NCBI GenBank assembly: GCA_018377855.1 | Contig: JAGZYM010000005.1 | Location: 15,567-79,566 of the forward strand | Source of the DNA: Collinsella sp. | Lineage (GTDB): Bacteria; Actinomycetota; Coriobacteriia; Coriobacteriales; Coriobacteriaceae | Length of the DNA: 64,000 nucleotides | Direction of reading: 5' to 3' | Shown: positions 5,452 through 37,096 of the stretch, one piece after another | How the letters are laid out: every line of letters starts with the position of its first letter | Numbering within the stretch: the stretch's first letter is position 1 | Translations under genes and position numbers: made by a program | The notes under the pieces: generated by a model | Told to the model about the DNA's origin: nothing | What the model saw: the letters and a program-made list of their open reading frames with translations, nothing else | Databases searched by the model: none

Positions 5452-5529
<78 letters not shown>

Positions 5530-17528: not shown

Positions 17529-17882
17529 TGTTCCCCTCCTTTCCTTTTTGACGCCCTTGGCGTCACCCCTTGCGCGGTCCGTTTTGCCGCGCGCTTTTAT
17601 TCCATGGCTTTAAGATACGGCCTTGGCGCAGCAGCGCCGCTCGCAGCTCGACCGAAGGCAGAACTGCAAAACGAGCGGCACCGTTTTTGGGACGAACGGC
17701 GGGAGACGTCATTCGTCTTGGACGCTTTCATCTTGTCTGCTTTTGAATACCTGCTGCCGTGACGCTTGGCGCGCGGCGCGGCAACGTTCATACCATTTGT
17801 CAGGCTTTTGGCGCACATGCCCATGTGTCGTGCATCTTTTTATGTAGGATAGACAAGTTACACATGAGGCAAGGTGATTCGA

Positions 17883-18884
17883 ATGGCATACGGATACAAT
17901 GACGGCGACCAACGGCCACAAAGCGTGCGCCTTGCCGGCCGCACCATGCCAACGCCCAGAAGCACCTCCGACAACGACAACCCGCAGCGCCCCCAAGAGC
18001 AGCTCGGGGCTTCTTCGCGGCAACAAAGCCGTACCGTGCAGCAGTCAGACCGCGTGAGTACGAGCACACGCCAACGTCAGACCGACACATCGCAGCCACG
18101 CCGCTACGATCGCCGTAAGACCGACTACTACGTCAAGCGTTCCTTTTCGCGACCTCAACGCGATCGCGGCAATTCCTCCCCTCACCCCGCGTCGCACACC
18201 ACAAGCCACGCGCTTCCGGCCCGCCGCCTACGCCTTGCGCTTTGCTCCATCGCCGCCTGCCTCGTCTTTGTGTTTTTGGGATCCTGTATCTCCCACGGAT
18301 CAGCCGGTCTTGAGCCCACTGCCGAGGACAAGCTGCTTAAAGCTCCCGTCGCGCCCGGTTACTCCTTTGCGTTCTCGACCCCACGCTCGCAATGGCAGGC
18401 CGGCACCATGCCCCACATCTACCAAATTGACCCCGCATGGTCGGAGCTGCCCTATGCCGGTGGCACTATTCGCGAAAACGCTTGCGGTCCTACCTGCCTC
18501 ACCATGGTCTATATCTTTAAGACCGGCCATACCGATAAGACGCCGGTCGATATATGCGCGCTGGCCGAAGCCGGCAACTACGCCCCCACTGGTGCCACCG
18601 AGTGGTCGTTTATGACAGGCGGTGCGTGGCAGCTGGGGCTCAACGGAACACAGCTCTATAACGATCGCGAATCGATTACTCAAGCACTTCGCTCGGGTGC
18701 GCCCGTCATCGCCGCAGTGCGCCCCGGTACGTTTACCAACGTAGGCCACTACATCGTGCTCTACGGCATCGACGATGCCGACCAGATTGGCGTCTACGAC
18801 CCCAACTCGGCCAGCCGCAGCGCCCGTCGCTGGGGCGTCGTAGAGGTCCTCAACGAAGTCGAAGCCATGTGGGCCTACTACTAG
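17883..18884 (+). CDS. membrane-anchored papain-like cysteine peptidase domain protein (peptidase C39-like fold)
   Basis: Pro/Gln/Arg-rich N-terminus, one TM helix, C-terminal domain with ENACGPTCLTMV catalytic-Cys context and HYIVLYG. Confidence 0.6.
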   Translation: MAYGYNDGDQRPQSVRLAGRTMPTPRSTSDNDNPQRPQEQLGASSRQQSRTVQQSDRVSTSTRQRQTDTSQPRRYDRRKTDYYVKRSFSRPQRDRGNSSPHPASHTTSHALPARRLRLALCSIAACLVFVFLGSCISHGSAGLEPTAEDKLLKAPVAPGYSFAFSTPRSQWQAGTMPHIYQIDPAWSELPYAGGTIRENACGPTCLTMVYIFKTGHTDKTPVDICALAEAGNYAPTGATEWSFMTGGAWQLGLNGTQLYNDRESITQALRSGAPVIAAVRPGTFTNVGHYIVLYGIDDADQIGVYDPNSASRSARRWGVVEVLNEVEAMWAYY

Positions 18885-19100: not shown

Positions 19101-20063
19101 CTACTCGTGGATGCGGGTGCCGGAGAGGCCGGCCATGGTCTCGGCGGCCTTGTCCAGAGCGCCGATGATGCAGGTACGGCCCTTGCGGGAACGGGCGAAC
19201 TTGATGGCGGCGCGGACCTTGGGCTCCATGGAACCCTTGCCGAACTGGCCCTCGTCGGCCAGGCGCTCGGCCTCGTCGGCGGTGATGTCCTCGAGCTCCT
19301 CCTGGTTGGGCTTACCAAAGTTGATGGCGACATGCTCAACGGCGGTCAGCAGGAACAGAACGTCAGCGTCGCAGTCCTCGGCCAGCAGCTCGCCGCCCAG
19401 GTCCTTGTCGATGACGGCGGGGACGCCCTTGTAGCAGCCCTTGTTCTCGTAGTCGCGGACGACGGGGATGCCGCCGCCACCGCAGGCGATGACGATGAAC
19501 TCGTTGTCGAGCAGGTTGAGGATGGAGTCAGCCTCGACGATCTTCTTGGGATCGGGGGAAGCGACGACGCGACGCCAGCCGCGGCCGGAATCCTCGACGA
19601 AAACCTTGGAAGGATCCTCGGCCATGAACTCCTTGGCCTGCTCCTCGGTGTAGAAGGGGCCGATCGGCTTGGTCGGGTTCTTGAACGCGGGATCGTCCGG
19701 GTCGCACTCGATCTGGGTGACGACGGTGGCGGCGTGCCAACGCTTATAGCGCTTGTGCATCTCGCGGCCAATGCCCTGCTGCAGGTGATAGCCGATGTAG
19801 CCCTGGGACATGGCGCCGCACTCGGGCAGCGGCATCTCGGGGGTGCCGATGGCGTCGTGGGCAGCGGCGAAAGCGTTCTGAATCATGCCAACCTGCGGGC
19901 CGTTGCCGTGGGTGATGATGATCTCGTTGCCCTGCTCGATCAGGCCGAGGAGAGCGTGAGCGGTGTTGCTCACGGCCTCGATCTGCTCAACGGGGTTGTT
20001 GCCGAGGGCGTTGCCGCCAAGGGCGACGACGATACGATCGGGCTTGCCAAGAGGCTTAGACAT
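19101..20063 (-). CDS. arcC: carbamate kinase
   Basis: MSKPLGKPDRIVVALGGNAL... ; ATG at 20063 with AGGA RBS 9 nt upstream (ORF track 20120). Confidence 0.9.
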   Translation of the reverse strand: MSKPLGKPDRIVVALGGNALGNNPVEQIEAVSNTAHALLGLIEQGNEIIITHGNGPQVGMIQNAFAAAHDAIGTPEMPLPECGAMSQGYIGYHLQQGIGREMHKRYKRWHAATVVTQIECDPDDPAFKNPTKPIGPFYTEEQAKEFMAEDPSKVFVEDSGRGWRRVVASPDPKKIVEADSILNLLDNEFIVIACGGGGIPVVRDYENKGCYKGVPAVIDKDLGGELLAEDCDADVLFLLTAVEHVAINFGKPNQEELEDITADEAERLADEGQFGKGSMEPKVRAAIKFARSRKGRTCIIGALDKAAETMAGLSGTRIHE

Positions 20064-20120
20064 TGCTGGAATCCTTTCTGTAAAAGGCCTACAACCCATT
20101 AATAACCCGCGCCCGTGCAA

Positions 20121-20665
20121 TACGCGAGTTTATTAAGGTTTATATTCTCTTTATCGCTCATTTTATTCATTTTGAAAATAGTTGAACGGTGAACGGTCGC
20201 TTTTGCCCGCTCAGCGTAAAGAAACCCAGCTCAAGCATATCTACGTCATTTACGTGCAACTTTATTTTAATAGAGCAGGGATTAGACCAGATTATGCAAA
20301 CTGTATCTTTGCTAAACATAAAACAGACAGCGCAAAATCTTACTCGCACTATACGAGATTCTATGCACTTATTGGACGAGTATGCAGCCCTGCAATAACA
20401 TGGCGTTTTTCATCCAACTTAAGGAATAGACGAGTGCCTTTGCAGCGCGTCGGCCGGCAGCCGGCGAGCCGTCTCGTCGGTTGCCGCTTCCAGAAAATCA
20501 AAAACTGATATTGCGCGCGCAATTGCTGCATGGTACTTTAGCGAAGAACAGCGCGGGCTGGGGCGACAGAGATCTGCCGTGAAGTTTGGGTTCGGCGACC
20601 CCGCTGCTGTCTTCTCCTTATCCGCCAGCGAACCCCTTGAGCGACGGATTGAGGAGGTCCTTACT
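20121..20665. promoter_or_regulatory. roughly 540-bp AT-rich divergent intergenic region between arcC and the 20666 gene
   Basis: GC drops to about 38%; contains tandem GAACGGT GAACGGT and long A/T runs. Confidence 0.4.
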
Positions 20666-21082
20666 ATGACAAAAATGCTCAAGATCACGCTGAATGGCGA
20701 GACGTTTCTCGCCGACATGCTCTGGGACAAGGCTCCCGAGGCATGCAAGCTATTCGAATCGTCCTGTCCGGTCGAGTCACGTATCTTTTCGGCCAAAATC
20801 TGCGATGCCGAGGTGACGTATCCTGTCTCGGGCCCCATCGCCAATTACGAGCACATCGAGAACCCCGTCTTTCACGAGCCAGCGGGCGCCGTGAGCTGGT
20901 ATGGCGGATGGTCATCAATCTGCATCTTCTTTGACGTCTGTGAGCCTTTTGGCACCTGCAACATGTTCGCCCGCATCTGCGAGACAGACCGTGAACGCTT
21001 TGCCGCTGCCTGCCGCAATGTCTGGGACAACCAGGGCATGTACATTAAAAACGAAATCGTCGAGATCGAGGCGGAGGCCTAA
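20666..21082 (+). CDS. hypothetical Cys-containing protein (possibly cyclophilin-like DUF3830-type fold)
   Basis: Start at MTKMLKITLNG preceded by GAGGAGG; ORF track lists a longer 20579 start. Confidence 0.45.
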   Translation: MTKMLKITLNGETFLADMLWDKAPEACKLFESSCPVESRIFSAKICDAEVTYPVSGPIANYEHIENPVFHEPAGAVSWYGGWSSICIFFDVCEPFGTCNMFARICETDRERFAAACRNVWDNQGMYIKNEIVEIEAEA

Positions 21083-21084
21083 AG

Positions 21085-21609
21085 ATGATGGATATCAACA
21101 CCCTGCTCACACTCGACCTTGCCGAGTACACCGCTGCACTTGAGGCCCTCGCCGACCAAATGATGCTCGAGGAGCCCCGCGACATCGACCTGATGCGCCG
21201 CCGCAAGCTCGACACCGGCCGCGAATTCGCCGTCTGGAACTTCACCGTCGGCTACTGCATGAACGCCACCGACGCCCTCTCCCTCCTGCGAGCCCAGGCC
21301 AACGAAAACGCCAACGATGGCACCGCCGACCTCGCAACGATCAACAACAGCGCCGCACGCCTGTGCGACTGGTTCTCGGGCGCCTTCGACGTCACCGGCA
21401 AAATGGATGACACCACGGCAATCCTCGCCCACAGCCGCGACCTCTACGCCCAGGTAGAGACTCACGAACAGTTTGCAGCCCTCACCCGCGCCACCGAGCG
21501 CTATCTGGTCCAGCTCCAATTTTGGGTTGACCGCCAGATTCCCTGGCCGGCTATTAGCGACTTCGTCCACGGCTACCGCCTACGCACAGAGAGCGGCGAG
21601 ACAAGGTAA
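21085..21609 (+). CDS. hypothetical protein
   Basis: 174-aa ORF 3 nt after the previous stop; codon usage consistent with the host. Confidence 0.5.
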   Translation: MMDINTLLTLDLAEYTAALEALADQMMLEEPRDIDLMRRRKLDTGREFAVWNFTVGYCMNATDALSLLRAQANENANDGTADLATINNSAARLCDWFSGAFDVTGKMDDTTAILAHSRDLYAQVETHEQFAALTRATERYLVQLQFWVDRQIPWPAISDFVHGYRLRTESGETR

Positions 21610-21760
21610 CCAAGCAAGCAGCACCGACAACACCCCACCATCGGGATCCAAAGTAAGAATCAGAGGGCTGGAGACGCACCCAACAGCGTCCCCAGCCCCT
21701 TCGCAAAGTAGAGCACTGTTTCAGTGGCTTTGAGGCCTATTCGAACCTTTGCTATCTCCC

Positions 21761-21840
21761 AATTTTTGTATTTTTACAACAATATTATCTGCAAATTTTT
21801 GTATGATTTTAGGCGATTCTATCTGTCAATTTTTGTCATT
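21761..21840 (+). promoter_or_regulatory. three phased AATTTTTGT(A/C) repeats (21761, 21794, 21828; about 33-bp spacing) upstream of the AAA ATPase gene
   Basis: Direct repeats visible in the sequence; helical phasing suggests a binding-site array or promoter UP elements. Confidence 0.35.
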
Positions 21841-21850
21841 TGGGGGTTTA

Positions 21851-23212
21851 ATGCTACGCCGTAAGGTCACTGATAGGCTTTTGAGCTGGAAGAATAACTC
21901 CAATAAGGCATTACTCGTTACTGGTGCGCGTCAGATTGGCAAGAGCTATGCGATTCGCGCGTTTGGACAAAGCAACTACGCTTCGTATTTTGAGGTCAAT
22001 TTACTACTCGATGTCGAAGCAAGGAATGCACTTGTTGGCGCAAAGAACTCCGTTGACTTTATCAACCGTGTAGCCCTTCTTGCGGATGCGCCGCTTGTTG
22101 AGGGCGATACGCTTGTCTTTGTCGATGAGATTCAGGAGTATCCGCAGATCGTTACACTCATGAAGGCGTTGGTCGAGGATGGGCGCTTTAGCTATGTCTT
22201 CTCGGGGTCTATGCTTGGGACTGAGTTTAAGGGGGTCTCTTCTTTTCCGGTGGGGTATGTAGAGCACATTGTTATGCGCCCGATGGATTTTGAAGAGTTT
22301 TGTTGGGCAAACAGCGTTAGCGAGAATGTGCTTGCAGGCATTCGCAGCTGCCTTGTCGAGAAACATCCTGTCGAAAACTATATTCATGAGGCGATGCTCA
22401 AGAACTATAGAGCTTATATCGTTTGCGGCGGCATGCCGGAGGTCGTTCAGAATTATATTGATTCGGGTTATTCGCTCGTGAGCACACGTGAGCTTCAAAC
22501 TCAGCTGGTCGATCAGTACAAAAGCGATATCTCAAAATATGCATCGACTCGAGCGTTTAACGTTCGGTCGATTTTTGAGCAAATTCCCGTTCAGCTTGAG
22601 GCGGAGTCTCATCGCTTTGTTGTTTCGTCTCTGGGTGAGGGAGCTCGCCTTAAAAAATATGAGCAGGATTTCCTGTGGCTTGTTAACGCAGGTGTTGGAT
22701 TGATGGTCGCCAGGGTGACGGAGCCACGGAGTCCTCTCAAGAGGACGGAGAAAACGACGGCCTTCAAACTATATGAGTCTGATACGGGCATGCTCGCATC
22801 GCGGTACCCCGGCAGCACCGCACGCGCTGTCTATCTTGATATGAAAACTCCCAACCTTGGTGGTCTCTATGAGAACGTGGTCGCGCAGGAACTTGTTGCC
22901 CTCGGGGCGGATGCATGGTACTACCAAACGCGTGAGGTCGGTGAAGTTGACTTTGTGATCGAAGGCGCCCACGGGCACGTTGTCCCAATCGAGGTCAAAT
23001 CGGGCAAGAAAGTTCGAGCGCACGCGGCCCTCGATCGTCTGATGAGTGTGGGCGAGTACAAAATTCCCGAGGCCGTTGTACTAAGCCACGAGAATCTCAG
23101 CAAAGAGGGCAAGGTTCTGTACGTTCCAATCTACATGACGTTTTGTCTCGATGAGTTTATGGAAAAGGATGACCCCAATAACGATTTCTCGTTCGCGCCC
23201 ATATCTCTCTAG
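21851..23212 (+). CDS. AAA-family ATPase with DUF4143 C-terminal domain
   Basis: KALLVTGARQIGKSY Walker A; VFVDEIQ Walker B; start at MLRRK with GGGGG RBS (ORF track 21749); GC lower than its neighbours. Confidence 0.8.
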   Translation: MLRRKVTDRLLSWKNNSNKALLVTGARQIGKSYAIRAFGQSNYASYFEVNLLLDVEARNALVGAKNSVDFINRVALLADAPLVEGDTLVFVDEIQEYPQIVTLMKALVEDGRFSYVFSGSMLGTEFKGVSSFPVGYVEHIVMRPMDFEEFCWANSVSENVLAGIRSCLVEKHPVENYIHEAMLKNYRAYIVCGGMPEVVQNYIDSGYSLVSTRELQTQLVDQYKSDISKYASTRAFNVRSIFEQIPVQLEAESHRFVVSSLGEGARLKKYEQDFLWLVNAGVGLMVARVTEPRSPLKRTEKTTAFKLYESDTGMLASRYPGSTARAVYLDMKTPNLGGLYENVVAQELVALGADAWYYQTREVGEVDFVIEGAHGHVVPIEVKSGKKVRAHAALDRLMSVGEYKIPEAVVLSHENLSKEGKVLYVPIYMTFCLDEFMEKDDPNNDFSFAPISL

Positions 23213-23270
23213 CCATTTGAATCTGCAATCCAGCCCCGTCCACGCATCAATGCATTTCCCAAGGTGCTGC

Positions 23271-23447: not shown

Positions 23448-23572
23448 GCAGGATCTGAGGGCTGACCTTCGCGGACACTCCGCAGGACGAAAGAACCCCC
23501 GCCGCACGTAGTGCGCAGCGGGGGTTCTTTCATGTCCGAGGACATCCGCGAAGGTCAGCCCTCAGATCCTGC
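23448..23572. repeat. nested palindrome: outer 25-bp inverted repeat (AGGATCTGAGGGCTGACCTTCGCGG...) around inner hairpin GAAAGAACCCCCGC...GCGGGGGTTCTTTC, immediately 3' of PFOR
   Basis: Read directly; probable transcription terminator or processing structure for nifJ. Confidence 0.5.
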
Positions 23573-23582
23573 GGTGGGAGAC

Positions 23583-27122
<3,540 letters not shown>

Positions 27123-27468
27123 ATACCCCTCTCCTCTCATATAGGTATACAGGCCCCGGCGATCGCCGGGATGTTGGCGTGATGGGATTTACGCTGTTGC
27201 TTCCAATCATCTGGCAGGCGGACTCAGCAGCAGGTACATGGCGTGGAGAGAAGGCATGCCGAGGCGAGGAGGGCTGCACGCGCTCCACAAGCCCAGCTAC
27301 CCGTCTTGCACATGACCGAGCGCCGCAAAGGCCGCATGCCGGATGCTCCCGGGCACGCCCCGGCGATGGGAAGCGCCCGCAACGGAAATCCGCATGCGGG
27401 TTTATTGTACCCCGCCGTTAAGTGTAATTTCGACAAATATAGGCGGGCGGTAAAGGTTTACCTCGGGT

Positions 27469-27995
27469 GACCGCCAAAGGCCAGAATGGTCCCTCCATCC
27501 CCGGACGACTGGCTCTGACGCGCCAAGGAGTGTCCCCAAGTACCGGCAGGAAAGGAACGTCCCTAACTGCCGGCTAGAGGGCGCCGAGCAGGATGGCGTA
27601 GGTGGTGGATTCGCCGAGTTTGAGCTCGTCGCCGGGGTTGAGCTGGGCGGAGCGGCCGGGCTCTACTTGAATACACACACTCGTGGCCCCGTTTACCACC
27701 ACGGTGCCGTTAGTGGACGACAGGTCCTCGACAAACCATGCGCCAGACTCGTCGCACCAGATATGGGCATGGCGGGCCGAGACGTCGTCGGTGATGCCGC
27801 CCTCCCCCGTTGCCAGCGCGCCGATCTCAACGCCTTCCTCACTCGGCTGAATCCAGCGCGGGACGCTCACCACGTAGCCGTTTTGCACGCACAGCAGTCC
27901 CAGCGGATGCGCCGGCGCGACCTCGTGCTCGCCCGCGACCGAAGATGTGCTCAGCGAGCGCGGCGTCGACGTGTCGCCGCCACGGGTCGCATGAG
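27469..27995. repeat. left copy of a roughly 530-bp direct repeat (about 85% identical to 34205-34748) covering the FHA-domain coding region and its 3' flank
   Basis: Nucleotide alignment by eye; includes the shared 45-nt motif. Confidence 0.75.
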
Positions 27996-28047
27996 CGCGG
28001 CGGCTCGCCCGACTTGGAACTAAGGCGGGCGTGAGAGCAAACGGCAT
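27574..28047 (-). CDS. FHA-domain protein, truncated paralogue (FHA domain only) of the 34310-35248 gene
   Basis: C-terminal 135 aa nearly identical to the paralogue (VSARHAHIWCD...VEDLSSTNGTVVNG); unique 18-aa N-terminus. Confidence 0.6.
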   Translation of the reverse strand: MPFALTPALVPSRASRRAHATRGGDTSTPRSLSTSSVAGEHEVAPAHPLGLLCVQNGYVVSVPRWIQPSEEGVEIGALATGEGGITDDVSARHAHIWCDESGAWFVEDLSSTNGTVVVNGATSVCIQVEPGRSAQLNPGDELKLGESTTYAILLGAL

Positions 28048-28533
28048 AGGGAACGAATCTTGCGGATGTACTCCTCGACGTCAGGCAGGTAAGCCCCACG
28101 AAGTCACCGGGGAGGCCCAAGCGGCCCGGCACCACTTCCAGATTCTGACCAGGGCGAGTCGTTCGCCGGTGGCTGAAGGCTCGCTCCCACCCAAAAGGGG
28201 AGATTCGCGTTGTTCCCCAATCGCTCTCGCATCTTTCATTTTGCTCGAGGTGGGCTATAAAAACTTTCCTGGTGAAAGGCGGCGATTGGTTTCCTTTCTT
28301 TCTAGAGGAGCGCGCCTGTAATCTGTTTTCATCCTAAATCAAGTTAAGATCGGACCTTCCAGAGGCAAGTCGACTCAAACTGCGAGGCTCCATGTTGGAA
28401 TAAAGAGCGCTGTCGAAGTGCCAACAACACAAAGCTTGCCAGTCTCAAATAGAACCTTTTGGGAGTCCGATTGGGCCGCACACCGAATCCCCGCTGGTGG
28501 TTTTTTATAGCTGCGCAACAATAAACAAGGTTA

Positions 28534-29922
28534 GTGCCAGTCCAGCATGAAATTGAGGAACGTATGCATTTTTTCTCAGTAAGTGATCGTCGTTACTGCT
28601 TCGATGAGGTCACTCGCAATTGCTTTCAGGTTGACCAAGCATCAGAAGATGCGCTTCGCATATTTGAAGCATCGGGAAGAACGGTCAACTCGAAGTTGCT
28701 AACAAAGTCACTTGCTGCGAAAGGCTACGACCAAACGACCATAGCAGAACTTGAAGACGACATTGATGAGTATCAACGATTGTCTGAGCGGACTTTCTTA
28801 ACAAAAGACACGCCTCGAAAACTTAGATCCATCGAACTCCACGTTTCACATGCATGCAACCTTGGTTGTAGTTACTGTTTTGCCGGTAAAGGAGATTATG
28901 GAACGTCTCCTCTGCTGATGACAGACGAGATAGCCTTCAAGGCGGTCGACTACCTCGTCGCAAGTTCATCGGAAAACGAAACGCTTGCGATCGTCTTTTT
29001 TGGTGGGGAACCCATGATTAACGAGCCGCTGATATGGAAAACGGTCGACTATTCAAAAAGAATATACCCCAATAGAAACTTTACCTATTCTATTACGACC
29101 AACGGAACGCTTTTGAATGACACTGCTGTGAATTCTTTCAAGGAGCACGGGTTTTCTGTTCTGATTAGTCTCGATGGTACAGGATGCAAGCACGATGCAT
29201 CGCGCCCGTACAAGACGGGAGGCGGCTCTTTCTCCGATATCGACAAAAACGTTCGTCGTTTTTCCGAGTCGTTCCCCTTCGGCGCAAGAGCGACCTTAAC
29301 AAATAATAACTGTAACCTTGTTGAAGACTATCTTCAGTTTAAAGAGATGGGCTTCAGAAGGATTTACTTCTCGCCCGTGAGCTCATTCGATGAGAATATC
29401 AAACTCGACGAACACTCATTAAACAAAATCAGGGCGGGCCTAATAGATTTGGCGGATCAATATCTCAAACAGATTGATCAAGGGGAAAAGCCCTTGTTTA
29501 GAACATTGAAAACTGCAGTTGATTTGATTATGAGTAACAGGATCGCCTTTGTCGGATGCGGGGCTGGCAGGCGTTTTATTTCCGTGACTCCCGAAGGGGA
29601 CGTATACCCCTGTCACAGGTTTGTCGGGATGATGCGATTCAAAATGGGCAACATCGTCACCGGAATTGACGAAACTAGGTATATTGAAAACTGGAGTCAG
29701 GGTGTCGAAAAAAGAATTGACTGTACGGACTGTTGGGCTCGGTCTTTCTGTGGTGGGGGCTGTAGCTGGGAGGCTGCAGACGAGCACGGCTACTTGCCCA
29801 AGAGTCTACACCCTGCATCATGTGAATATAGAAAAATGTGCTACGAGATGGCTTTTGACCTTATTTCCCGCCACTCATCTTCGCAGGAGAAAAATCAACG
29901 AGAAGCTACTGTATCGGAATAA
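28534..29922 (+). CDS. radical SAM/SPASM-domain peptide-modifying maturase with roughly 100-aa N-terminal RRE-like extension
   Basis: CNLGCSYC (CxxxCxxC) at residues 108-115; C-terminal SPASM cysteines CGAGRR...C...CTDCWARSFCGGGC...CEYRKMC; about 43% GC; alternative ATG at 28564. Confidence 0.85.
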   Translation: MPVQHEIEERMHFFSVSDRRYCFDEVTRNCFQVDQASEDALRIFEASGRTVNSKLLTKSLAAKGYDQTTIAELEDDIDEYQRLSERTFLTKDTPRKLRSIELHVSHACNLGCSYCFAGKGDYGTSPLLMTDEIAFKAVDYLVASSSENETLAIVFFGGEPMINEPLIWKTVDYSKRIYPNRNFTYSITTNGTLLNDTAVNSFKEHGFSVLISLDGTGCKHDASRPYKTGGGSFSDIDKNVRRFSESFPFGARATLTNNNCNLVEDYLQFKEMGFRRIYFSPVSSFDENIKLDEHSLNKIRAGLIDLADQYLKQIDQGEKPLFRTLKTAVDLIMSNRIAFVGCGAGRRFISVTPEGDVYPCHRFVGMMRFKMGNIVTGIDETRYIENWSQGVEKRIDCTDCWARSFCGGGCSWEAADEHGYLPKSLHPASCEYRKMCYEMAFDLISRHSSSQEKNQREATVSE

Positions 29923-30091
29923 GCGGTTCAGCGCATTGCTGTCACCATTGTGGAGGTGTTCGTTCTTCTGATTACCGTCTGCGAAGCTTATTGCTACATT
30001 CGCCGAAACCATTCTAGAAATATGGTGAACTAGACATCTTGGTTTGTTATACACAATATTGAGGTTTTTCTGCACTCAAAGGGAGGTAGTC

Positions 30092-30295
30092 GTGAAGCAT
30101 ATTCATCCGATTAATCCAGGAAGTGGCGACGAGGCAGGCGTGAAGCCGATGTCTTTTGACTGCCTCTTGGGCATTACTGACATCTGTACTGTTTATGATA
30201 AAGCAGATGGCTGTGGTGCATACGATTACTGCGACTATGACATGGATGGCGGCAGCATCTGCGTTGTAGATCACTGTGGCATTGATCAAACGTAG
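30092..30295 (+). CDS. RiPP precursor peptide 1 (67 aa; MKHIHP leader; core with 6 Cys and repeated C-x2-4-D spacing)
   Basis: GTG start 5 nt after AAGGGAGG; MKHIHPINPGSGDEAGVKPMSFDCLLGITDICTVYDKADGCGAYDYCDYDMDGGSICVVDHCGIDQT. Confidence 0.65.
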   Translation: MKHIHPINPGSGDEAGVKPMSFDCLLGITDICTVYDKADGCGAYDYCDYDMDGGSICVVDHCGIDQT

Positions 30296-30325
30296 TCTCT
30301 AATTGGATTAAGGTGAGGAGCTGTT

Positions 30326-30505
30326 ATGAAGCATATCCATCCTGTTGGTTCAAATGAACATCCTCCCGTTGAGCCTTGTTGTCTTGGAGTTGATATATGC
30401 AATTATTACGACATCGCCGAGTGCCCTGTTGCGGATTGGTGCTATGTCGATAAAGAATCAAGCTGTGTTTTGCCAGCAGATTGGTGCGATCCAGTTGACG
30501 AGTAG
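30326..30505 (+). CDS. RiPP precursor peptide 2 (59 aa; same leader family; 7 Cys), absent from the ORF track
   Basis: My own translation: ATG at 30326 after AGGTGAGGAG gives MKHIHPVGSNEHPPVEPCCLGVDICNYYDIAECPVADWCYVDKESSCVLPADWCDPVDE, stop TAG at 30503-30505. Confidence 0.65.
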   Translation: MKHIHPVGSNEHPPVEPCCLGVDICNYYDIAECPVADWCYVDKESSCVLPADWCDPVDE

Positions 30506-30583
30506 TTTTGTGGCTAGGAACTATTTGGTCCAATTCAGAATAAGATGGGAACAAATACCAAAATCTCGTGTCTGGGAGGAGTT

Positions 30584-30691
30584 ATGCCATTATTGCAAGG
30601 TCTCGTTGGATTAGCCTTTATACTTGCGTTATATCTGGCACCTTTTTTAATTCTATTCTTCATTATCCGACTCTTTCTTCGGAGAAAATAG
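30584..30691 (+). CDS. small hydrophobic peptide (35 aa, single TM, RRK C-terminus); candidate immunity or membrane partner
   Basis: ATG after GGGAGGAG; MPLLQGLVGLAFILALYLAPFLILFFIIRLFLRRK (my own translation, not in the ORF track). Confidence 0.3.
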   Translation: MPLLQGLVGLAFILALYLAPFLILFFIIRLFLRRK

Positions 30692-31391
30692 GAGTGTCAC
30701 GCAAACATTAGCGTAGCTTTCTTCCAATATGAGCCGAGCATTGGCAAGTGGAATAAGAAGCCCGACCGTTCGCCACATGAAAGTGATCGGACGGGCTTCT
30801 CTATTTAACCCGGGCCGCCACCCATAGCGGCTTTCCAAGCGTATTCTCAGTGCAAAGCAATCGTCAGTTTAATCCTATGCGCTGATACCGCATTTCATTT
30901 GTTCGGCTCGAATTCTACGGCCTGGCAACCCTCGCACTCTCCGGCAAATGGATTGAACGCGAAGGCAGAGATGATGTGTGCGTGGACATCGAGGCTGCTG
31001 TAGGCAACATACTGGGACATGGACCCCCGCTGCGCGTGGTATGCGGCCCGGCATATTCATTGCCGTCCAACCCCGTGTAGTTGCAGCAAAGGGTGGAACC
31101 TCAATGCTCAGCTCATGTTGTCCGTGGGACACGAGAATCGTAAGTACACTTTGGTGCGATTCTCACGCTGATACTGAGCCACCTGGAATAAGATACGTCG
31201 CGACAACACTTCGCTTCACCTCTGTCTCGACAAGATGACGTAGACTAAAGTTTCCTTTAGTAAGAGAACGAGAACTATATCTGAAAGCGTTGCGATGGCG
31301 TGAAGGCACCGAGTCCGAACCGCCTGAATGCTACGTGCATCTGCATCGCCTTTTTGTTATCTCTGCCAGTTGGGTAGCACTACACTTGTCA

Positions 31392-33044
31392 TCATTTACC
31401 CTGGTACATGCTGCCTAAATCCACTACCCCTTCTACCGCGCCGACCATCTCGTCATCGTGAGAGACAACGATGATCAGCTGGCTTTGCTTGTTGCGCTTA
31501 ACATAGGCCGCAAGCTCGGCGCGGCTTACAGCGTCTAACCCAGTCGTGGGCTCGTCGAGTACCAAAACTGACGACTTGCGTGAAATCGCCGACCATAAGT
31601 ACACTCGGCGCAGCTCACCGCCCGAAAGCGCGGAGCAACGTTTCCCGAGCAACTCCTTCACGCTGTTTTCCAACGAAAGTAGGCCATCTACACCCCGGTG
31701 ATAGGAAGAAAAGGGCGTGTCGAAATACTCTAACAGCTCTTTCACCGTTTCGTCCGGCGCGAAGCACGACTGTGGGCAGCACGATATCTCTCTCGCACGT
31801 ATGTAATCCAAGTCGCATTCTTCGATTGGCACGCCGTTGTATTTTACTTTGCCTTTCGATGAGTATAGCCCGAGCATCAAGTAAAGAAGTGACGTCTTGC
31901 CTCTTCCGTTTTCCCCAACTATGCAATATGTACCAGGACCGGAAAACTTGAAAGAAAACCCGCCGAGGACCTCTCGGACAGATCCGTCTGGAAGGGCAAC
32001 CGAGAATTCCAAATCAGATACCGAAATGTCATTTATTTCATCGAGTTTAGCTAAATCGGTCCGATTCCACCCCGATCTCTCCTTTTCTCTCGTCGCGATA
32101 GCCGTCCTATCCCATGATGCTTTGGCATCTTGATAGGATTTGAACAATGACATCATACTTTTCAAAGTCTTAAAGAGAACCGCGAAGTATGTACCGATGA
32201 TAGTGTACTCGCCTATTGACATAGTTCCGTTAATGATTCGTACTCCGGAAACAACAAGTATCACCGCTTGAAACAACGCTGCGAAAAGACCATCGAGCGA
32301 TGTCAGAGAATATGATAGCTTTCCGGAGCGCAAAACTTTGGGAAAATAGCTCTTAAACCCAGCGTCGAGCGCTTGTTCGCTCTTGCCGTACGAAGATGTC
32401 AGTTGAATGTTGAGAATCTGATTAAGCTGCGATGCAATTGCGGCGTAAAAGGCGCTGTCCGCCTCTTTCTTCTCATACGTGACCCTATACAAAAGATTCC
32501 TCAACCCAGTAATTACACAGAAATACACGATGAGGAGAATGATGGAAAACACCGCGAGAGTTGAATCAATTGACCATATGATAAGCAATACGATGGGAAT
32601 GGCTACAATGGACAGCGGCGCACTGATAAAATTCGCCAAAACGAAGGATGAGACCACGCTGGAGTCGGAAATAATCCGTTGCGTTGTATAGGCTGGATCG
32701 ATGGTCCGACTCACCAAGTAATCGTCTCTTTCAAAACGCAAGACGGCCTCCCTGAGAAGATCAAAGGAAAGTCTCGTGGTTATGCGAATGGAAAGTGTTC
32801 CTGCAAAATAAGTAAAGAGGGTGGAGAAAACTCCTATTGACGCAACCAGGAGCGCGAAGAGTACGGCGTCTCTTTCGCTGCGGTTACCGAGAAGAAAATC
32901 TAAGAATTTCCCGTTCACGTATGGCATGGCATAGGAGAGAGCGGTTCCAATCACCGTGATAGCAATGAAGACGAAAGCCCCTTTTGCTCTGATGAACCTC
33001 GAGAGAACGCATCGAATCAAGGAAGGCCCCAATCTACCCGCCAC
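31392..33044 (-). CDS. ABC exporter, fused TMD-NBD half-transporter without N-terminal peptidase domain
   Basis: Walker A GENGRGKTS, signature LSGGELRR, Walker B VLVLDEPTTGLD; about 6 TM helices; low GC. Confidence 0.8.
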   Translation of the reverse strand: MAGRLGPSLIRCVLSRFIRAKGAFVFIAITVIGTALSYAMPYVNGKFLDFLLGNRSERDAVLFALLVASIGVFSTLFTYFAGTLSIRITTRLSFDLLREAVLRFERDDYLVSRTIDPAYTTQRIISDSSVVSSFVLANFISAPLSIVAIPIVLLIIWSIDSTLAVFSIILLIVYFCVITGLRNLLYRVTYEKKEADSAFYAAIASQLNQILNIQLTSSYGKSEQALDAGFKSYFPKVLRSGKLSYSLTSLDGLFAALFQAVILVVSGVRIINGTMSIGEYTIIGTYFAVLFKTLKSMMSLFKSYQDAKASWDRTAIATREKERSGWNRTDLAKLDEINDISVSDLEFSVALPDGSVREVLGGFSFKFSGPGTYCIVGENGRGKTSLLYLMLGLYSSKGKVKYNGVPIEECDLDYIRAREISCCPQSCFAPDETVKELLEYFDTPFSSYHRGVDGLLSLENSVKELLGKRCSALSGGELRRVYLWSAISRKSSVLVLDEPTTGLDAVSRAELAAYVKRNKQSQLIIVVSHDDEMVGAVEGVVDLGSMYQGK

Positions 33045-33359
33045 AAAACATCAATCACTGATACCTTACACCTCAACACAACAGGAGCGAAGATTTGCCA
33101 ATGAGACTGCTTTAAGATTGCCTTGGGCCAATACGATCTCAAGCTCTTCCTACAAGAGAGTCGGAATCGGACATCTCCTCCGACGAACCTGGCAATCGGG
33201 CGGTTGAAATATCTTTTTCAACCGCCCGATTGCCACAATAGATTTGAGCATCCGCCCACAAACGTCCGCGTTTTATACCCATCAAATCCTTTGCCTTTTG
33301 TCGTCTAGACTAGAAAAATCGCTCGAAATAACGCAACCGGCCTGCTCGCTTGAAGAAAC

Positions 33360-33967
33360 CTAAGCCCGTAACGTAGATGTGCAAACTTCCGAAACGCCTT
33401 GCGCGGCATAGTGCGTATAAACTTCGTCAACCGCCTCAGAAATATCTGAGTATCGCGCCGGGTCAAAAGCATACGATGTCGCAGCTATACCCTGCACCCA
33501 TTCGGAACGCGGATTAATTGAATAGCCACACAGCATCATCATACATGCATCTAGACCTGATTTCCCAAGTATCCGACGTATTGATGAGAGCATCGCGGGT
33601 CGCCCCTGCACCATCGTCGTCACCCCTATTAGCAGTATTTACCGTTTTTCTCTAAATGCGTATCGCCACCCTTAAGAATACGAAGTGTTTTATCCAGACC
33701 CGATTGTCCTCCATCTCAAACGAAGGGATAAGGAATCTCATCCGGAATCGGCAGTAACGGAGGATTCACAACGACAAGCGAAAAACATGAGTCATCTCTC
33801 AGAGGGGAGTAAAGGCTCCCCTCAAGCACCCTAGTTTCGTCATCCAAAGAGTTGATGGCAGTGTTTTTCTTACAAAGGTCGACAACAAAAGGGTTGATTT
33901 CTACAGATGTTACATCCATGCCACAGTTGGTAAGTATCAGGCCCTGTATTCTGGGGCCAGAACACAA
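33360..33967 (-). pseudogene. remnants of a class I SAM-dependent methyltransferase split across two frames
   Basis: 33716-33967 fragment has motif I (LDLCSGPRIQG) and VVNPP; 33360-33623 fragment is in another frame; no intact ORF. Confidence 0.4.
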
Positions 33968-34204
33968 ATCGAGAGCCTTCCGTGCGCTCTGCGGTGTAAG
34001 GCGCCAATCTCAGCAAATCTGTCCCACAATACTGCGCTGAAGAACAAGACGGAACCCCTGAGCCAAACTCCCCTATACCTTATTAAGGCTAAGACAGGCA
34101 AGTTCACGCACCCGGCATATTCCAGAATAACATCCTATTGTTTTAGATGCTCTACAAGCATGAACAGCCGCGAATCGGAAAGATCTTCTAGTTTCGCCCC
34201 GACT

Positions 34205-34748
34205 GACCGCCAAGGGCCAAAATGGCCCCTCCATCCCCGGGCGACTGGCTCTGGCGCGCCGAGGAGTGTCCCCAAGTGCCGGCAGAAAAGGAACGTCCCT
34301 AACTGCCGGCTAGAGGGCACCGAAGAGAATGGCGTAGGTAGTGGATTCGCCGAGCTTGAGCTCGTCGCCGGGATTGAGTTGGGCGGAACGGCCGGGCTCG
34401 ACCTGAATGCAGACGCGCGTGGCCCCGTTTACCACCACGGTTCCGTTGGTGGACGACAAGTCCTCGACGTGCCAGATATTTTGAGCATCGCACCAGATAT
34501 GGGCATGGCGGGCCGAGACATCGTCGCCGACGTCGGTAATATCGCCCTCACCAGTGGCCAGCGCGCCAATCTCAACACCCTGCTCACTCGGCTGAATCCA
34601 GCGCGGGGCGCTCACGACAAAACTGTTTTGTACGCGCAGCAAGCCCAAGGGGTGCGCCGGGGCGGGTTCGCGTTCGCCCGCGGTCATCGACATGCCAAGC
34701 GAACGCGGCGTGGATGTGCCTCCGCCACAGGTCGCGTGCGCGTAGTCG
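34205..34748. repeat. right copy of the roughly 530-bp direct repeat (see 27469-27995)
   Basis: Nucleotide alignment by eye. Confidence 0.75.
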
Positions 34749-35248
34749 ATGGCATAGTTCACCGAGGACCGCACATCCGCCGAACAACCGACGGCGACAA
34801 ACAGCACCAGCACGGCCTCGGCGCGCTCGGCGGGCATGAGTTCCGCCGCCTGGGACAGGCGATCGAGCGCGTTGCGATAGAGATTCGTGTCCTGGTGGCA
34901 CTCTTCGAGCGCGCGTACCATCGGTTCACCTGCAGGACCGCACACCATATTGATCACAGCCGTGGAGTCCATGGGATTGCGCTGGCGCAGGGCCAGTTGC
35001 GACATAATACGCGCAGCCGAGGTACCGTATTCGGCAAAGTAGCGCTGCTGAAGCGTGCCGACCGGCGCGCGAACGATAAAGCGGGAAACCCAAGAGCGAT
35101 CGGCGGCTCGGCTCTGCGGGCTGCGGCCGTCGGCGAGCGGACGGGACGAAAGCACCAGGCCGCACAGCTCGATATGGCTCAGATGCGCCGCGCGCTTAAA
35201 GATGTCAAACATGGCCCCGCATGGGGTGAGCTCAACTTGAGATGCCAT
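34310..35248 (-). CDS. FHA-domain protein (full-length; N-terminal domain of unknown function plus C-terminal FHA)
   Basis: C-terminal FHA motifs; immediately downstream of a Ser/Thr kinase gene. Confidence 0.8.
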   Translation of the reverse strand: MASQVELTPCGAMFDIFKRAAHLSHIELCGLVLSSRPLADGRSPQSRAADRSWVSRFIVRAPVGTLQQRYFAEYGTSAARIMSQLALRQRNPMDSTAVINMVCGPAGEPMVRALEECHQDTNLYRNALDRLSQAAELMPAERAEAVLVLFVAVGCSADVRSSVNYAIDYAHATCGGGTSTPRSLGMSMTAGEREPAPAHPLGLLRVQNSFVVSAPRWIQPSEQGVEIGALATGEGDITDVGDDVSARHAHIWCDAQNIWHVEDLSSTNGTVVVNGATRVCIQVEPGRSAQLNPGDELKLGESTTYAILFGAL

Positions 35249-35251
35249 GAC

Positions 35252-37096
35252 CTAGGCCTCCTTGGTCGTAGAAATAGAATCGGACGATACTTCGACAGGT
35301 ACGCCAAAAGTACGGGCAGCTGCGGCTCCACCGGCAAGCGGAGTCGCCATCTGGGCTTTTGTGCGTCGCGGTGCCGAAGCGGGAAGTTCAAAGGCAAAGC
35401 CCATCGCAAGCAAAAACCACGTAAGCGTATAGGTTGCAACCAGAGCGGCAACAAGGCCGCCCATCACGGCGCGTTGGGAAAATACGCTACATGCAGCCAC
35501 AACCAGCACCGGAACCTCGCAGGCAGAAAGCGCAAGCACACCCTGCAGGAACCCCGAGCGCCGATCGCGCGCAAGCGCCCCCGCGGCAACGCCGGCTATG
35601 CCTGGCAGCGCCAACGCCAGTGCGGCAATAATACCCGGTAGCGACCCAGACCACACGAGCGATCCCAAAGTCGCCGTCACGCGAGTGCCCGACGCCAGCA
35701 GCGCGGCCGAAACCACGACCACAGCCCAAACCACGCCACAGACGACCGTCGCGCCGACCATCAGCGTGCGACGAACCGCGCGGCCGGACGCATCCATGGG
35801 GCACGGCGTGAGCGGCTCGCCGCGGAGCGAACGACCGACATTTTGCGCATAGTGGTCACAAAACGCCGAGAGCGCCGCCTCGACCGCCGCCGGCTCGGGA
35901 CGATCTTTTTGATGGCTGGACAGACAGGCCATCACCACGTCGAACAGCTGGGCATCGACAAACGCCAGCGCATCGCGTAGCTCTTCGGAATCCGGCTCAA
36001 GCCCCAGCTGCTGGGCCTGCTCGGCCGCGGCGAGCGCCACATCGGGCTCACGGCGAAGCAGCTGAGTCAAATCACAACCGGGCGCATGGACACCGATGGG
36101 ATAGTCGGGTCGCGTGTCCATCTTGAGACGATAGGGGCTCGCGATGTCGCGCGTCTTTTTGCGCGAACCCGAGGTGCCCGAAGTGCCCGGCGCGGCTTCG
36201 TATGGCGCGACGCCGGCAATGAGCTCGTAAACCGTGCTTGCCGCGGCATAGACGTCAATCGCCGGCGACATACGCAAAGCGCGCAGGTCGGGAATATCGT
36301 CGGTGAGCATCTCGGGCGGGGCATAGGCAACCGTCGCGCGACGCAGCGTGGCATAACGCTCCGTAAACGACGCCTTGCCGCCGGTACCGGCCACGGCCGA
36401 CGCAGGCTCGAGCGCCAGCGACGAGCCAAAGTCGATCAGGCACAGGTCAAAGGTGCCCTCGGCAAGCTGCCGGTCAAGCGGCAGGCGCGCCGTGCGCACC
36501 ATAATATTAGCGGACGAGATATCGCGATGGACAAAGCCCTCGCCCACCAGGCTCATACGGCAGAGCAGATCGAACAGGTCGCGACCCAGACGCGCCGCCA
36601 CAAGCGGCGACAGGCGTCCGGCATCGCCCACGGCAAGTCGCGAACGCAAGCGGGCAAGCGTCTCGCCCTCGACCCATTCCATGACAATTGCAGGCACACC
36701 GTCGACCTCGCCCCAGCCATAGAGGCGGGGAAAGCCCTTAAGGCCCGAAAGGGCGCGATGGCATTCGTATTCCTCGCGAAACGCCGCCTTGAACTTGGCG
36801 ACCAGCGCCTCGTGAGCGGCATCGTCGTCAAACTCATCGCGCGTCGGCAAGATGAGCTGCTTGAGTGCCACGGCCTCGCCTTGGGCGTTGACGGCACGCG
36901 TCACGCGGCCGATACCGCCACGGCGCATGGTGGCATCGTCGGCAAACAGCATCGTAAAACGACGCAGATAGGCAGGCAGTTCGTCCTGACCGAGCGCAAT
37001 GGCCGGCTCAAACCCGTCGACACGCGCCAGGCGCAGGCCGACCATGGGATCGCGACCGAGCGATTGTGGTGTGGTGGATGCAAGATCGGTCATCAT
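35252..37096 (-). CDS. Ser/Thr protein kinase with C-terminal polytopic membrane region (about 5 TM helices)
   Basis: Kinase subdomains ...AVALKQL..., HRDISSANIMV, DFG; C-terminal 180 aa hydrophobic. Confidence 0.85.
   Translation of the reverse strand: MMTDLASTTPQSLGRDPMVGLRLARVDGFEPAIALGQDELPAYLRRFTMLFADDATMRRGGIGRVTRAVNAQGEAVALKQLILPTRDEFDDDAAHEALVAKFKAAFREEYECHRALSGLKGFPRLYGWGEVDGVPAIVMEWVEGETLARLRSRLAVGDAGRLSPLVAARLGRDLFDLLCRMSLVGEGFVHRDISSANIMVRTARLPLDRQLAEGTFDLCLIDFGSSLALEPASAVAGTGGKASFTERYATLRRATVAYAPPEMLTDDIPDLRALRMSPAIDVYAAASTVYELIAGVAPYEAAPGTSGTSGSRKKTRDIASPYRLKMDTRPDYPIGVHAPGCDLTQLLRREPDVALAAAEQAQQLGLEPDSEELRDALAFVDAQLFDVVMACLSSHQKDRPEPAAVEAALSAFCDHYAQNVGRSLRGEPLTPCPMDASGRAVRRTLMVGATVVCGVVWAVVVVSAALLASGTRVTATLGSLVWSGSLPGIIAALALALPGIAGVAAGALARDRRSGFLQGVLALSACEVPVLVVAACSVFSQRAVMGGLVAALVATYTLTWFLLAMGFAFELPASAPRRTKAQMATPLAGGAAAARTFGVPVEVSSDSISTTKEA

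Follow-up and report, generated by a model that had tools for sequence, protein, structure and literature searches.

The question raised by this locus is what a low-GC stretch in the chromosome of a Collinsella sp. encodes, and how it came to lie where it does. The window, by which we mean the whole 64,000-nucleotide (nt) stretch of DNA that was analysed (positions 15,567 to 79,566 of contig JAGZYM010000005.1), holds this stretch between a pyruvate:ferredoxin oxidoreductase (PFOR) gene and a gene for an FHA-domain protein. A preliminary description, made from the letters of the window, had listed here a radical S-adenosylmethionine (SAM)/SPASM enzyme, two small open reading frames (ORFs) sharing a leader, a micro-ORF, an ABC exporter on the opposite strand and methyltransferase debris, and all of these are present. 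It is probable, in our judgement, that the stretch is a horizontally acquired, strain-variable Collinsella island which carries a reduced cluster for a pair of freyrasin-like ranthipeptides. As read from the sequences, the radical SAM enzyme most likely installs six thioether bridges in each peptide. The parts of the cluster are as follows (here and below, L numbers denote the genomic contexts that were compared).

28564..29922, plus strand: radical SAM/SPASM maturase, 452 amino acids (aa); PF04055, PF13353 and PF13186; best NCBIfam model PapB; closest PDB relative CteB
30092..30295, plus strand: precursor A1, 67 aa; GTG start with ribosome-binding site AGGGAGG; orthologues in L021, L022 and L028
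30326..30505, plus strand: precursor A2, 59 aa; from the ORF list; identical sequence on 39 blocks of public assemblies
30545..30691, plus strand: micro-ORF, 48 aa; hydrophobic with a basic C-terminus (MGTNTKISCLGGVMPLLQGLVGLAFILALYLAPFLILFFIIRLFLRRK)
31392..33044, minus strand: ABC exporter, 550 aa; transmembrane domain (PF00664) fused to an ATPase domain (PF00005)

The two precursors share a leader start, MKHIHP, and a core with six cysteines, each of which is followed 2-5 residues later by an aspartate. Precursor A1, whose start was corrected to GTG 30092 (67 aa) from that of an 83-aa maximal ORF, reads MKHIHPINPGSGDEAGVKPMSFD-C-LLGIT-D-I-C-TVY-D-KADG-C-GAY-D-Y-C-DY-D-MDGGSI-C-VV-D-H-C-GI-D-QT. 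Precursor A2 reads MKHIHPVGSNEHPPVEPC-C-LGV-D-I-C-NYY-D-IAE-C-PVA-D-W-C-YV-D-KESS-C-VLPA-D-W-C-DPV-D-E and has one additional cysteine immediately before the first core cysteine. The peptides are strongly anionic (Asp+Glu 10-13 versus Lys+Arg 2-5). In the A1 orthologues of L021, L022 and L028, every cysteine is kept together with its downstream aspartate. Moreover, all twelve full-length precursors, which belong to radical SAM enzymes of 39-100% identity and include P0136, the full-length form of a copy truncated by a transposase gene in L028, have six core cysteines with an Asp or Glu before the next cysteine. The small ORFs do have homologues: an A1/A2 pair also follows the radical SAM genes of other islands, whose enzymes are 73% and 67% identical to that of the window, and next to the more distant homologues (39-49% identity; L025, L027, L028 and L110) there are related precursors. 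The leaders of these relatives (MKHIMLVGK, MKHLSLIGK, MKHVVLIAGQ, MQHIGLIGQ) are likewise followed by six Cys-Xn-Asp units. P0133, a further related precursor, came from the profile search and is without genomic context.

The precursor family is rare, allowing for the poor calling of small ORFs. An exhaustive profile search with the precursor against 1.84 billion representatives returned only 15 matches, and with A2 as the query a word-indexed search gave no more than 8 proteins, all near-identical. A1 and A2 belong to no Pfam family and matched no NCBIfam model, including that of the SCIFF precursor, at E up to 0.01. In literature searches, no description was found of a Collinsella ranthipeptide, of this locus or of its precursor family. 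The preliminary description had recognised no named product in the peptides. The class can be named, as that of the PapB/freyrasin-like Cys-Asp ranthipeptides.

The maximal ORF of the enzyme spans 28534-29922. Its start is most likely ATG 28564, which is preceded by GAGGA and gives a protein of 452 aa; the database cluster P0001 has the same length and start, and all homologues begin MH(F/E)F. With this start, the cysteine cluster that had been placed near residue 108 becomes C98/C102/C105 (CX3CX2C). Pfam recognised the domains Radical_SAM (PF04055), Fer4_12 (PF13353) and SPASM (PF13186), the SPASM cysteines being C332, C350, C387, C390, C396, C400 and C420. The three cysteines of the CX3CX2C motif and all seven of the SPASM domain are invariant in 68 aligned relatives. 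The best NCBIfam model was that of the PapB ranthipeptide maturase (NF047865, a model of 330 positions without the recognition domain), with 271.8 bits, below its cutoff of 340. It was followed by the SCIFF maturase (266.5, cutoff 425), the nif11 maturase (259) and QhpD (241, cutoff 453), all of them below cutoff, and at greater distance by CcpM (189), RumMC (119.6, cutoff 720) and StsB (63.9, cutoff 625). The PapB model gave the best E-value in all 11 members of the enzyme family (39-100% identity), ahead of SCIFF, nif11 and QhpD, maturases that all form thioethers or are related to such enzymes.

By sequence, the closest relative in the PDB is CteB (E 3e-64; about 30% identity). An AlphaFold2 model of the enzyme, built with 68 sequences (pLDDT 93.7), superposes on CteB, which is also its best match by fold, over 443-459 columns with TM 0.83-0.89, including the recognition element (RRE) for RiPPs, i.e. 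peptides that the ribosome makes and that are modified after translation. The modelled N-terminal domain consists of three strands (2-6, 9-14, 19-23) and three helices (25-36, 43-52, 57-71). Its three-strand, three-helix form and the full-length alignment with the RRE-bearing CteB support the N-terminal RiPP-recognition domain that had been predicted from the letters, and would place the RRE at about residues 1-75.

The active site offers a further comparison. In the 11-member family, R336/R337, R352 (within the motif PCHRFVG) and R384 are invariant, or K/R; R352 and R384 are strictly invariant, and PapB also has Arg at both positions. In 57 SCIFF-type relatives, by contrast, Gln occupies position 352 in 47, Lys position 384 in 43 and Glu position 337 in 41. 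Arg372 of PapB was reported as required for cross-linking (PMC9413430). The PCHRFVG arginine of PapB aligns with R352 and sits at 365 in a machine-read copy of PapB with lost letters, and from this alignment Arg372 is probably the PCHRFVG arginine, equivalent to R352. Judged by these alignments, the extra arginines round the active site would fit acidic acceptor residues.

How far does the likeness to freyrasin go? The PapA/PapB system likewise pairs a short leader of the form K-H/Q-I-x-V/L-I-(A)-G with six core cysteines, each matched with a downstream aspartate. PapA itself is MLKQINVIAGVKEPIRAYG followed by six CX3D motifs, and its leader resembles for example MKHVVLIAGQ and MKHIMLVGK. Its maturase also belongs to the radical SAM/SPASM enzymes and has at its N-terminus an RRE of about 85 residues (residues 1-86; PMC12715619), and the two enzymes have in common the PCHRFVG arginine and the arginine that precedes the CX2CX5CX3C motif. 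In vitro, PapB takes Cys-Xn-Asp with n = 0-6 (PMC9413430). The differences are nevertheless clear. The window enzyme is only about 31% identical to the machine-read PapB sequence over the catalytic core, and its 272 bits lie under the family cutoff of 340. The six CX3D motifs of PapA overlap, whereas those of A1 and A2 have spacings of X2 to X5 and stand in line, separated from one another; the present clusters have two paralogous precursors each, and their leaders do not conserve the Asn noted in that of PapA. Finally, unlike the freyrasin genes, those described here belong to a gut commensal of the Coriobacteriia, where they share a low-GC island, present in some strains and not in others, with a micro-ORF and an exporter dedicated to them.

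The SCIFF systems (CteB/CteA thermocellin, Tte1186; TIGR03974/TIGR03973) share with the window locus the domain order of RRE, radical SAM and then SPASM with two auxiliary clusters, and six cysteines in the precursor. They differ from it in that the maturase score falls far short of the SCIFF cutoff (266 versus 425), the SCIFF precursor model misses A1 and A2, and SCIFF maturases have Gln, Lys and Glu where the window enzyme family has invariant Arg. In Clostridia, SCIFF loci belong to the conserved core genes rather than to islands (PMC8326336). Scores for the sactipeptide maturases (RumMC, StsB, AlbA-type) likewise stay under their cutoffs, at 119.6 of 720 for RumMC and 63.9 of 625 for StsB. 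By its predicted mechanism the locus is freyrasin-like; by formal score it is not a member of the PapB family, nor is it SCIFF.

In the pathway suggested by these features, A1 and A2 would be produced with leaders of about 17-23 residues starting with MKHIHP, and the leader would be bound by the N-terminal RRE of the maturase. The radical SAM core would take a hydrogen from the beta-carbon of an aspartate, and the sulfur of the neighbouring upstream cysteine would form an S-C thioether with that carbon. Six such rounds per peptide would give in-line, small Cys-X2-5-Asp rings and a compact, strongly anionic product, which the ABC half-transporter would export. As the exporter has no N-terminal C39 peptidase domain (it aligns from about position 150 of the profile of peptidase-containing bacteriocin exporters), the leader would be removed by a separate protease or kept. 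We infer the thioether chemistry, the Asp C-beta position, export and biological activity from sequence. The only C39-like protein nearby is encoded by a gene with a Peptidase_C39_2 domain at 17874-18884, about 9 kb from the island; it is native and present also in the island-free L013, L018 and L020, and there is no evidence tying it to leader cleavage.

The 48-aa micro-ORF probably encodes a single-pass membrane protein, as judged from its composition, and would act as a conserved accessory; whether its part is immunity or another accessory function is a guess. It occurs as 15 protein variants, all of them with conservative substitutions, and its counterpart in L021 is 40% identical and has the same position after A2. 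No Pfam or NCBIfam family matched it. The segment 30506-31391 consists of the micro-ORF and a GC-richer (0.53) part, at about 30.7-31.4 kb, that is non-coding or unassigned; other gene callers place a 41-aa and a 67-aa ORF in it, neither with a Pfam match. Ten small ORFs in 28031-28321, 30875-31309 and 32956-34107 gave no Pfam match at E up to 1.

We turn now to how the cluster came to lie between PFOR and FHA. The features that frame it, and those that fill the remainder of the cargo, are listed below.

27454..27997, minus strand: left direct-repeat copy; FHA 3' end plus about 120 nt downstream, diverged; from repeat search and a PF00498 match
27574-28047, minus strand: truncated FHA-domain ORF (PF00498), 157 aa, within the left copy and adjoining the PFOR gene
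27998..34189, no strand: low-GC cargo; from composition and alignment with the empty sites L011, L020 and L013
33190..33235, no strand: perfect inverted repeat of 20 nt with a 6-nt loop (TGGCAATCGGGCGGTTGAAA / TTTCAACCGCCCGATTGCCA); from repeat search
33360..34107, minus strand: pseudogene of a HemK/MTS-type methyltransferase with an NPPL motif; disrupted by stops and frameshifts
34190..34742, minus strand: right direct-repeat copy, the native one; 3' end of the intact FHA gene and the region downstream of it
34310-35248, minus strand: full-length FHA gene, 312 aa, intact, adjoining a Ser/Thr kinase gene

A sliding-window GC plot confirmed the low-GC stretch. In 500-nt windows, GC falls from 0.63-0.67 (27250-28249) to 0.43-0.53 (28250-34249) and returns to 0.64-0.65 from 34250, while the rest of the window is mostly at 0.57-0.70 (1-kb resolution). 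The cargo at 27998-34189, with 0.43-0.53, thus lies 12-18 points below its flanks at 0.60-0.67. The flanking duplicated FHA segment was also found. It consists of direct repeats of about 545 nt at 27454-27997 and 34190-34742, which represent the 3' end of the FHA gene and are 78-90% identical; the match consists of three blocks that adjoin one another (279 nt at 89% identity, 48 nt at 90% and 215 nt at 78%), with an offset of 6736-6745 nt. When aligned with the empty sites L011, L020 and L013, the right junction between cargo and native DNA falls at 34196|34197. Compared with the one FHA copy that empty-site strains have, the right repeat is 97-100% identical and the left repeat only about 80%, so that the left copy belongs to the inserted DNA. 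The 6.7-kb insertion therefore comprises the cargo together with a foreign, diverged fragment of the FHA 3' end. Among island carriers this left copy is polymorphic (85-100% identity). We infer that one crossover, joining the chromosome with a circular molecule that carried a homologous FHA fragment, would give such a layout.

No integrase or recombinase gene was found in 27454-34196 when the ORF translations were scanned with Pfam and NCBIfam, and no tRNA target is present at the island, the only tRNA of the window being at 5455-5529. Many contigs of about 6.76 kb in public short-read assemblies (L004-L010) span exactly 27754 to 34517 in window coordinates. They were considered as circular forms of the island and rejected, because their ends fall at a stretch of 32 nt in which the two FHA repeats do not differ; the contig ends are an assembly-graph break.

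The comparison with sister genomes showed that strains with an identical FHA protein can be either empty or occupied. Ten contexts of the identical 312-aa FHA protein, drawn from complete Collinsella chromosomes and long contigs, comprise six empty and four occupied sites. In the empty ones (L011-L013 and L018-L020; L013 is CP024160.1), FHA is followed by PFOR without cargo, and in L019 an IS110-family transposase gene lies between the two. The insertion is carried by L015-L017, and L014 has a version ridden with insertion sequences (IS). Among isolates, Collinsella sp. 4_8_47FAA, AM17-1 and TF11-5AC are island-positive, and C. aerofaciens CP024160 is island-negative. The island is thus not fixed at native GC, and its deviant composition together with this presence/absence polymorphism among close relatives upholds the proposal of horizontal acquisition.

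Within the genus, the spread of the island seems to be recent. Near-identical loci assigned to Collinsella aerofaciens and Collinsella sp. were found in the genome scan, and in a one-genome-per-species GTDB collection the enzyme occurs at 95-100% protein identity in 79 Collinsella representatives, always between PFOR and FHA. Nucleotide diversity (pi) is 0.002-0.003 for the radical SAM gene, precursors, exporter and debris, and 0.015-0.021 for the flanking PFOR, FHA and kinase genes, i.e. 7-10 times lower in the cargo. The segment 30506-31391 has a pi of 0.018, with two haplotypes about 4-5% apart among Collinsella genomes. By these values the cargo is much younger than its flanks, which argues for recent spread among lineages at a fixed site, and homologous recombination in the flanks is the likely route. 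Elements of the IS21, IS256/MULE and IS110 types lie in or beside the island in L002, L014, L015 and L021 and split the cluster in L014 and L015; these are secondary insertions. One 5.4-kb contig labelled Oscillospiraceae (L070, CAVEDI010000271.1) carries the island with a Collinsella PFOR flank at 98% identity, and is most likely a binning error rather than a transfer to Firmicutes.

The same four-gene module (radical SAM gene, A1, A2 and exporter) occurs in diverged form in L021 (enzyme 73% identical, exporter 72%) and in L022-L024 (enzyme 67% identical; exporter 47% in L022). These modules are low-GC islands (0.46-0.50) at two other chromosomal sites in genomes of 0.66 GC. The closest relatives of the window cluster are all islands in high-GC genomes themselves. 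No flanking repeats were found round the islands of L021 and L022, which indicates that the FHA duplication is specific to the site in the window, and neither the module of L021 nor that of L022-L024 brings its own mobility gene. More distant homologues, of 39-56% identity, belong to fuller clusters, whose order is one or two precursors, the radical SAM gene, an ABC ATPase, a membrane protein about 500 aa long, an Rce1/CPBP-type protease, an ABC exporter and a helix-turn-helix (HTH) regulator. In two of these, a second radical SAM/SPASM gene is present (L025/L026, 13976-15244; L028/L029, 4357-5691), encoding proteins of 416-444 aa that are 28% identical to the window enzyme, and the products of these two clusters may carry additional modifications. 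The Collinsella islands keep only the enzyme, precursors and exporter, with the micro-ORF in the window island and L021. A tblastn search of the island for the ABC ATPase, membrane protein, CPBP protease and HTH regulator detected no remnant of any of them. The window cluster is a reduced version of the fuller ones. Since the fuller clusters resemble bacteriocin loci with self-protection, competition between gut bacteria is our leading guess, by analogy, for the biological role.

In the window all genes are intact except the methyltransferase. Among the three Collinsella-type islands, pS is 0.81-0.97 (saturated) and pN 0.17-0.29 for the radical SAM gene, A1 and A2, giving a pN/pS of about 0.2-0.3. 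The three genes are under purifying selection. In a survey of 93 related loci, with denominators varying by gene, A1 is intact in 84 of 87 copies, A2 in 85 of 87 and the micro-ORF in 84 of 86, the enzyme in 71 of 93 and the exporter in 55 of 78. The amino-acid variants of A1 and A2 are nearly all in the middle of the leader, and the cores are nearly invariant across 84-85 loci.

Several observations weigh against the reading as a functional freyrasin-like cluster. With no named family does the enzyme score as high as the curated cutoff (PapB, 272 versus 340; SCIFF, 266 versus 425), so that its function is extrapolated, and the top four models lie within about 30 bits of one another. The mapping of Arg372 onto R352 rests on a PapB sequence damaged by optical character recognition. 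The radical SAM gene is defective in 20 of 93 loci (12 frameshifted, 8 interrupted) and 23 of 78 exporter copies are not intact; in public data, frameshifted 468-aa variants of the enzyme form protein clusters of their own. The pathway is being lost in part of the population, and some of the defects may be assembly errors. The island has no protease and no recognisable immunity genes, unlike L025, L027 and L110. Scans of the island for promoters and terminators were at chance level (6 found versus 6.2 expected, and 10 versus 7.0); the promoter-like site at 30031-60, just upstream of A1, was given no weight.

These points bear on the alternatives to different degrees. That the locus makes a cross-linked RiPP by a different chemistry, with sactionine links (Cys to alpha-carbon), SCIFF-like Cys-Thr gamma links or non-Asp acceptors, is unlikely, and is the rival to which we give most weight. 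The SCIFF, nif11 and CcpM models come near that of PapB (266, 259 and 189 versus 272 bits), sactipeptide maturases are detectable relatives (RumMC, 120 bits), and linkage chemistry is not readable from sequence. Against this, the Asp or Glu after every cysteine is the sole conserved pattern besides the cysteines themselves across precursors whose enzymes are 39-100% identical, two arginines are common to the enzyme family and PapB and absent from SCIFF maturases, the SCIFF precursor model did not match A1 or A2, and the sactisynthase models scored far lower. Next in rank, and held to be similarly unlikely, is a decaying relic: the island would be what is left of a larger cluster after the loss of protease, immunity transporter and regulator, and a mature product would no longer be made. 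Such a relic would account for the missing ABC ATPase, membrane protein of about 500 aa, CPBP protease and HTH regulator, for the adjoining methyltransferase pseudogene, and for the frameshifts or IS interruptions of the radical SAM gene or exporter in about a fifth to a third of loci. Yet in the window the four genes and the micro-ORF are all intact, the reduced module has been kept in three islands at saturated synonymous sites with a pN/pS of about 0.2-0.3, and the precursor cores hardly vary in 84-85 loci while the leaders do.

Much less probable is an origin of the region within Collinsella, with empty sites arising by deletion through recombination of the FHA repeats. The 545-nt direct repeats would permit such deletion, all 79 of 79 carriers have the region at one site, and no integrase is present; but a GC content 12-18 points under the flanks, a cargo diversity 7-10 times below that of the flanking genes (which fits recent spread and not long residence), related modules at other loci in related genomes, and a left repeat only about 80% identical to the native gene all speak for acquisition. 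Secondary losses by repeat recombination probably occur as well. The remaining possibility, a maturase acting on proteins (of the anaerobic sulfatase maturase, anSME, or QhpD type) beside incidental small ORFs, can be taken as effectively refuted already. Both are detectable homologues with the same core; anSME is the second-best structural match, and QhpD links Cys to an Asp/Glu side-chain carbon in the gamma subunit of quinohemoprotein amine dehydrogenase (PMC8326336). As the preliminary description had argued, however, the enzyme is not an anSME: the model TIGR03942 gave 115 bits versus a cutoff of 349.45, far under the 272 of PapB, anSME lacks the N-terminal RRE and aligns over the core alone (about 375 of 452 columns, Foldseek E ~1e-19), and no sulfatase gene lies nearby, the neighbours being PFOR, FHA, Ser/Thr kinase, RecR and DnaX. 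QhpD, at 241 bits, is far below its cutoff of 453, no qhp genes are found here, and the substrates would be small leader-bearing peptides. Moreover, small ORFs stand beside the enzyme in every homologous locus.

The other features of the region can be described briefly. The methyltransferase remnant at 33360-34107 is a true pseudogene. Its segment 33716-33967 matches PF05175 at 22.7 bits (cutoff 23) and NF011529 at E 2e-9; the frame meets an in-frame TGA after ...VVVNPPLLPIPDEIPYPFV, resumes with DGGQSGLDKTLRIL and has more stops beyond. The inverted repeat at 33190-33235 lies between this pseudogene and the exporter, about 150-190 nt upstream of the exporter start, and may serve as an operator or as a terminator. 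GC is also lowered (0.45-0.55) in a second patch at 20000-23250, which contains an ORF with a DUF3830 domain (20579-21082) and a gene for an AAA_14/DUF4143 ATPase (21749-23212). The ATPase gene is found beyond PFOR in L011 and is absent in L013, L018 and L020; as its presence varies between strains, the region neighbouring the island is strain-variable too. Very long plus-strand ORFs at 23511-27182 and 34160-35641 run antisense to the PFOR and FHA/kinase genes, and are typical artefacts of high-GC DNA, not genes.

In gut metagenomes, ranthipeptide clusters as a class rank with the most frequent antiSMASH calls. To our knowledge, freyrasin with its maturase PapB is essentially the single characterised example of its kind so far, and has been used mainly as a peptide-stapling tool. 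A bolder form of the freyrasin-like reading, which we put forward tentatively and at rather less than even chances, is that A1 and A2, co-conserved and strongly anionic, form a distinct and rare ranthipeptide subclass with six in-line Cys-X2-5-Asp thioether rings in each peptide made by one PapB-like enzyme, and that this trait, in a recent sweep through many Collinsella lineages, has spread at one site without a mobility gene of its own and is an active determinant of strain-level fitness, such as a two-peptide bacteriocin or a signal. On the freyrasin-like reading itself, the locus would add to freyrasin another family of Cys-Asp substrates, a natural one in which ring sizes vary and precursors come in pairs. 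Near-identical cargo within more diverged flanks also makes it a clean case of recent gene flow within Collinsella. In this abundant human gut genus, carriers and non-carriers differ at the locus by one 6.7-kb insertion, and such strain pairs make the ecological role of the island directly testable.

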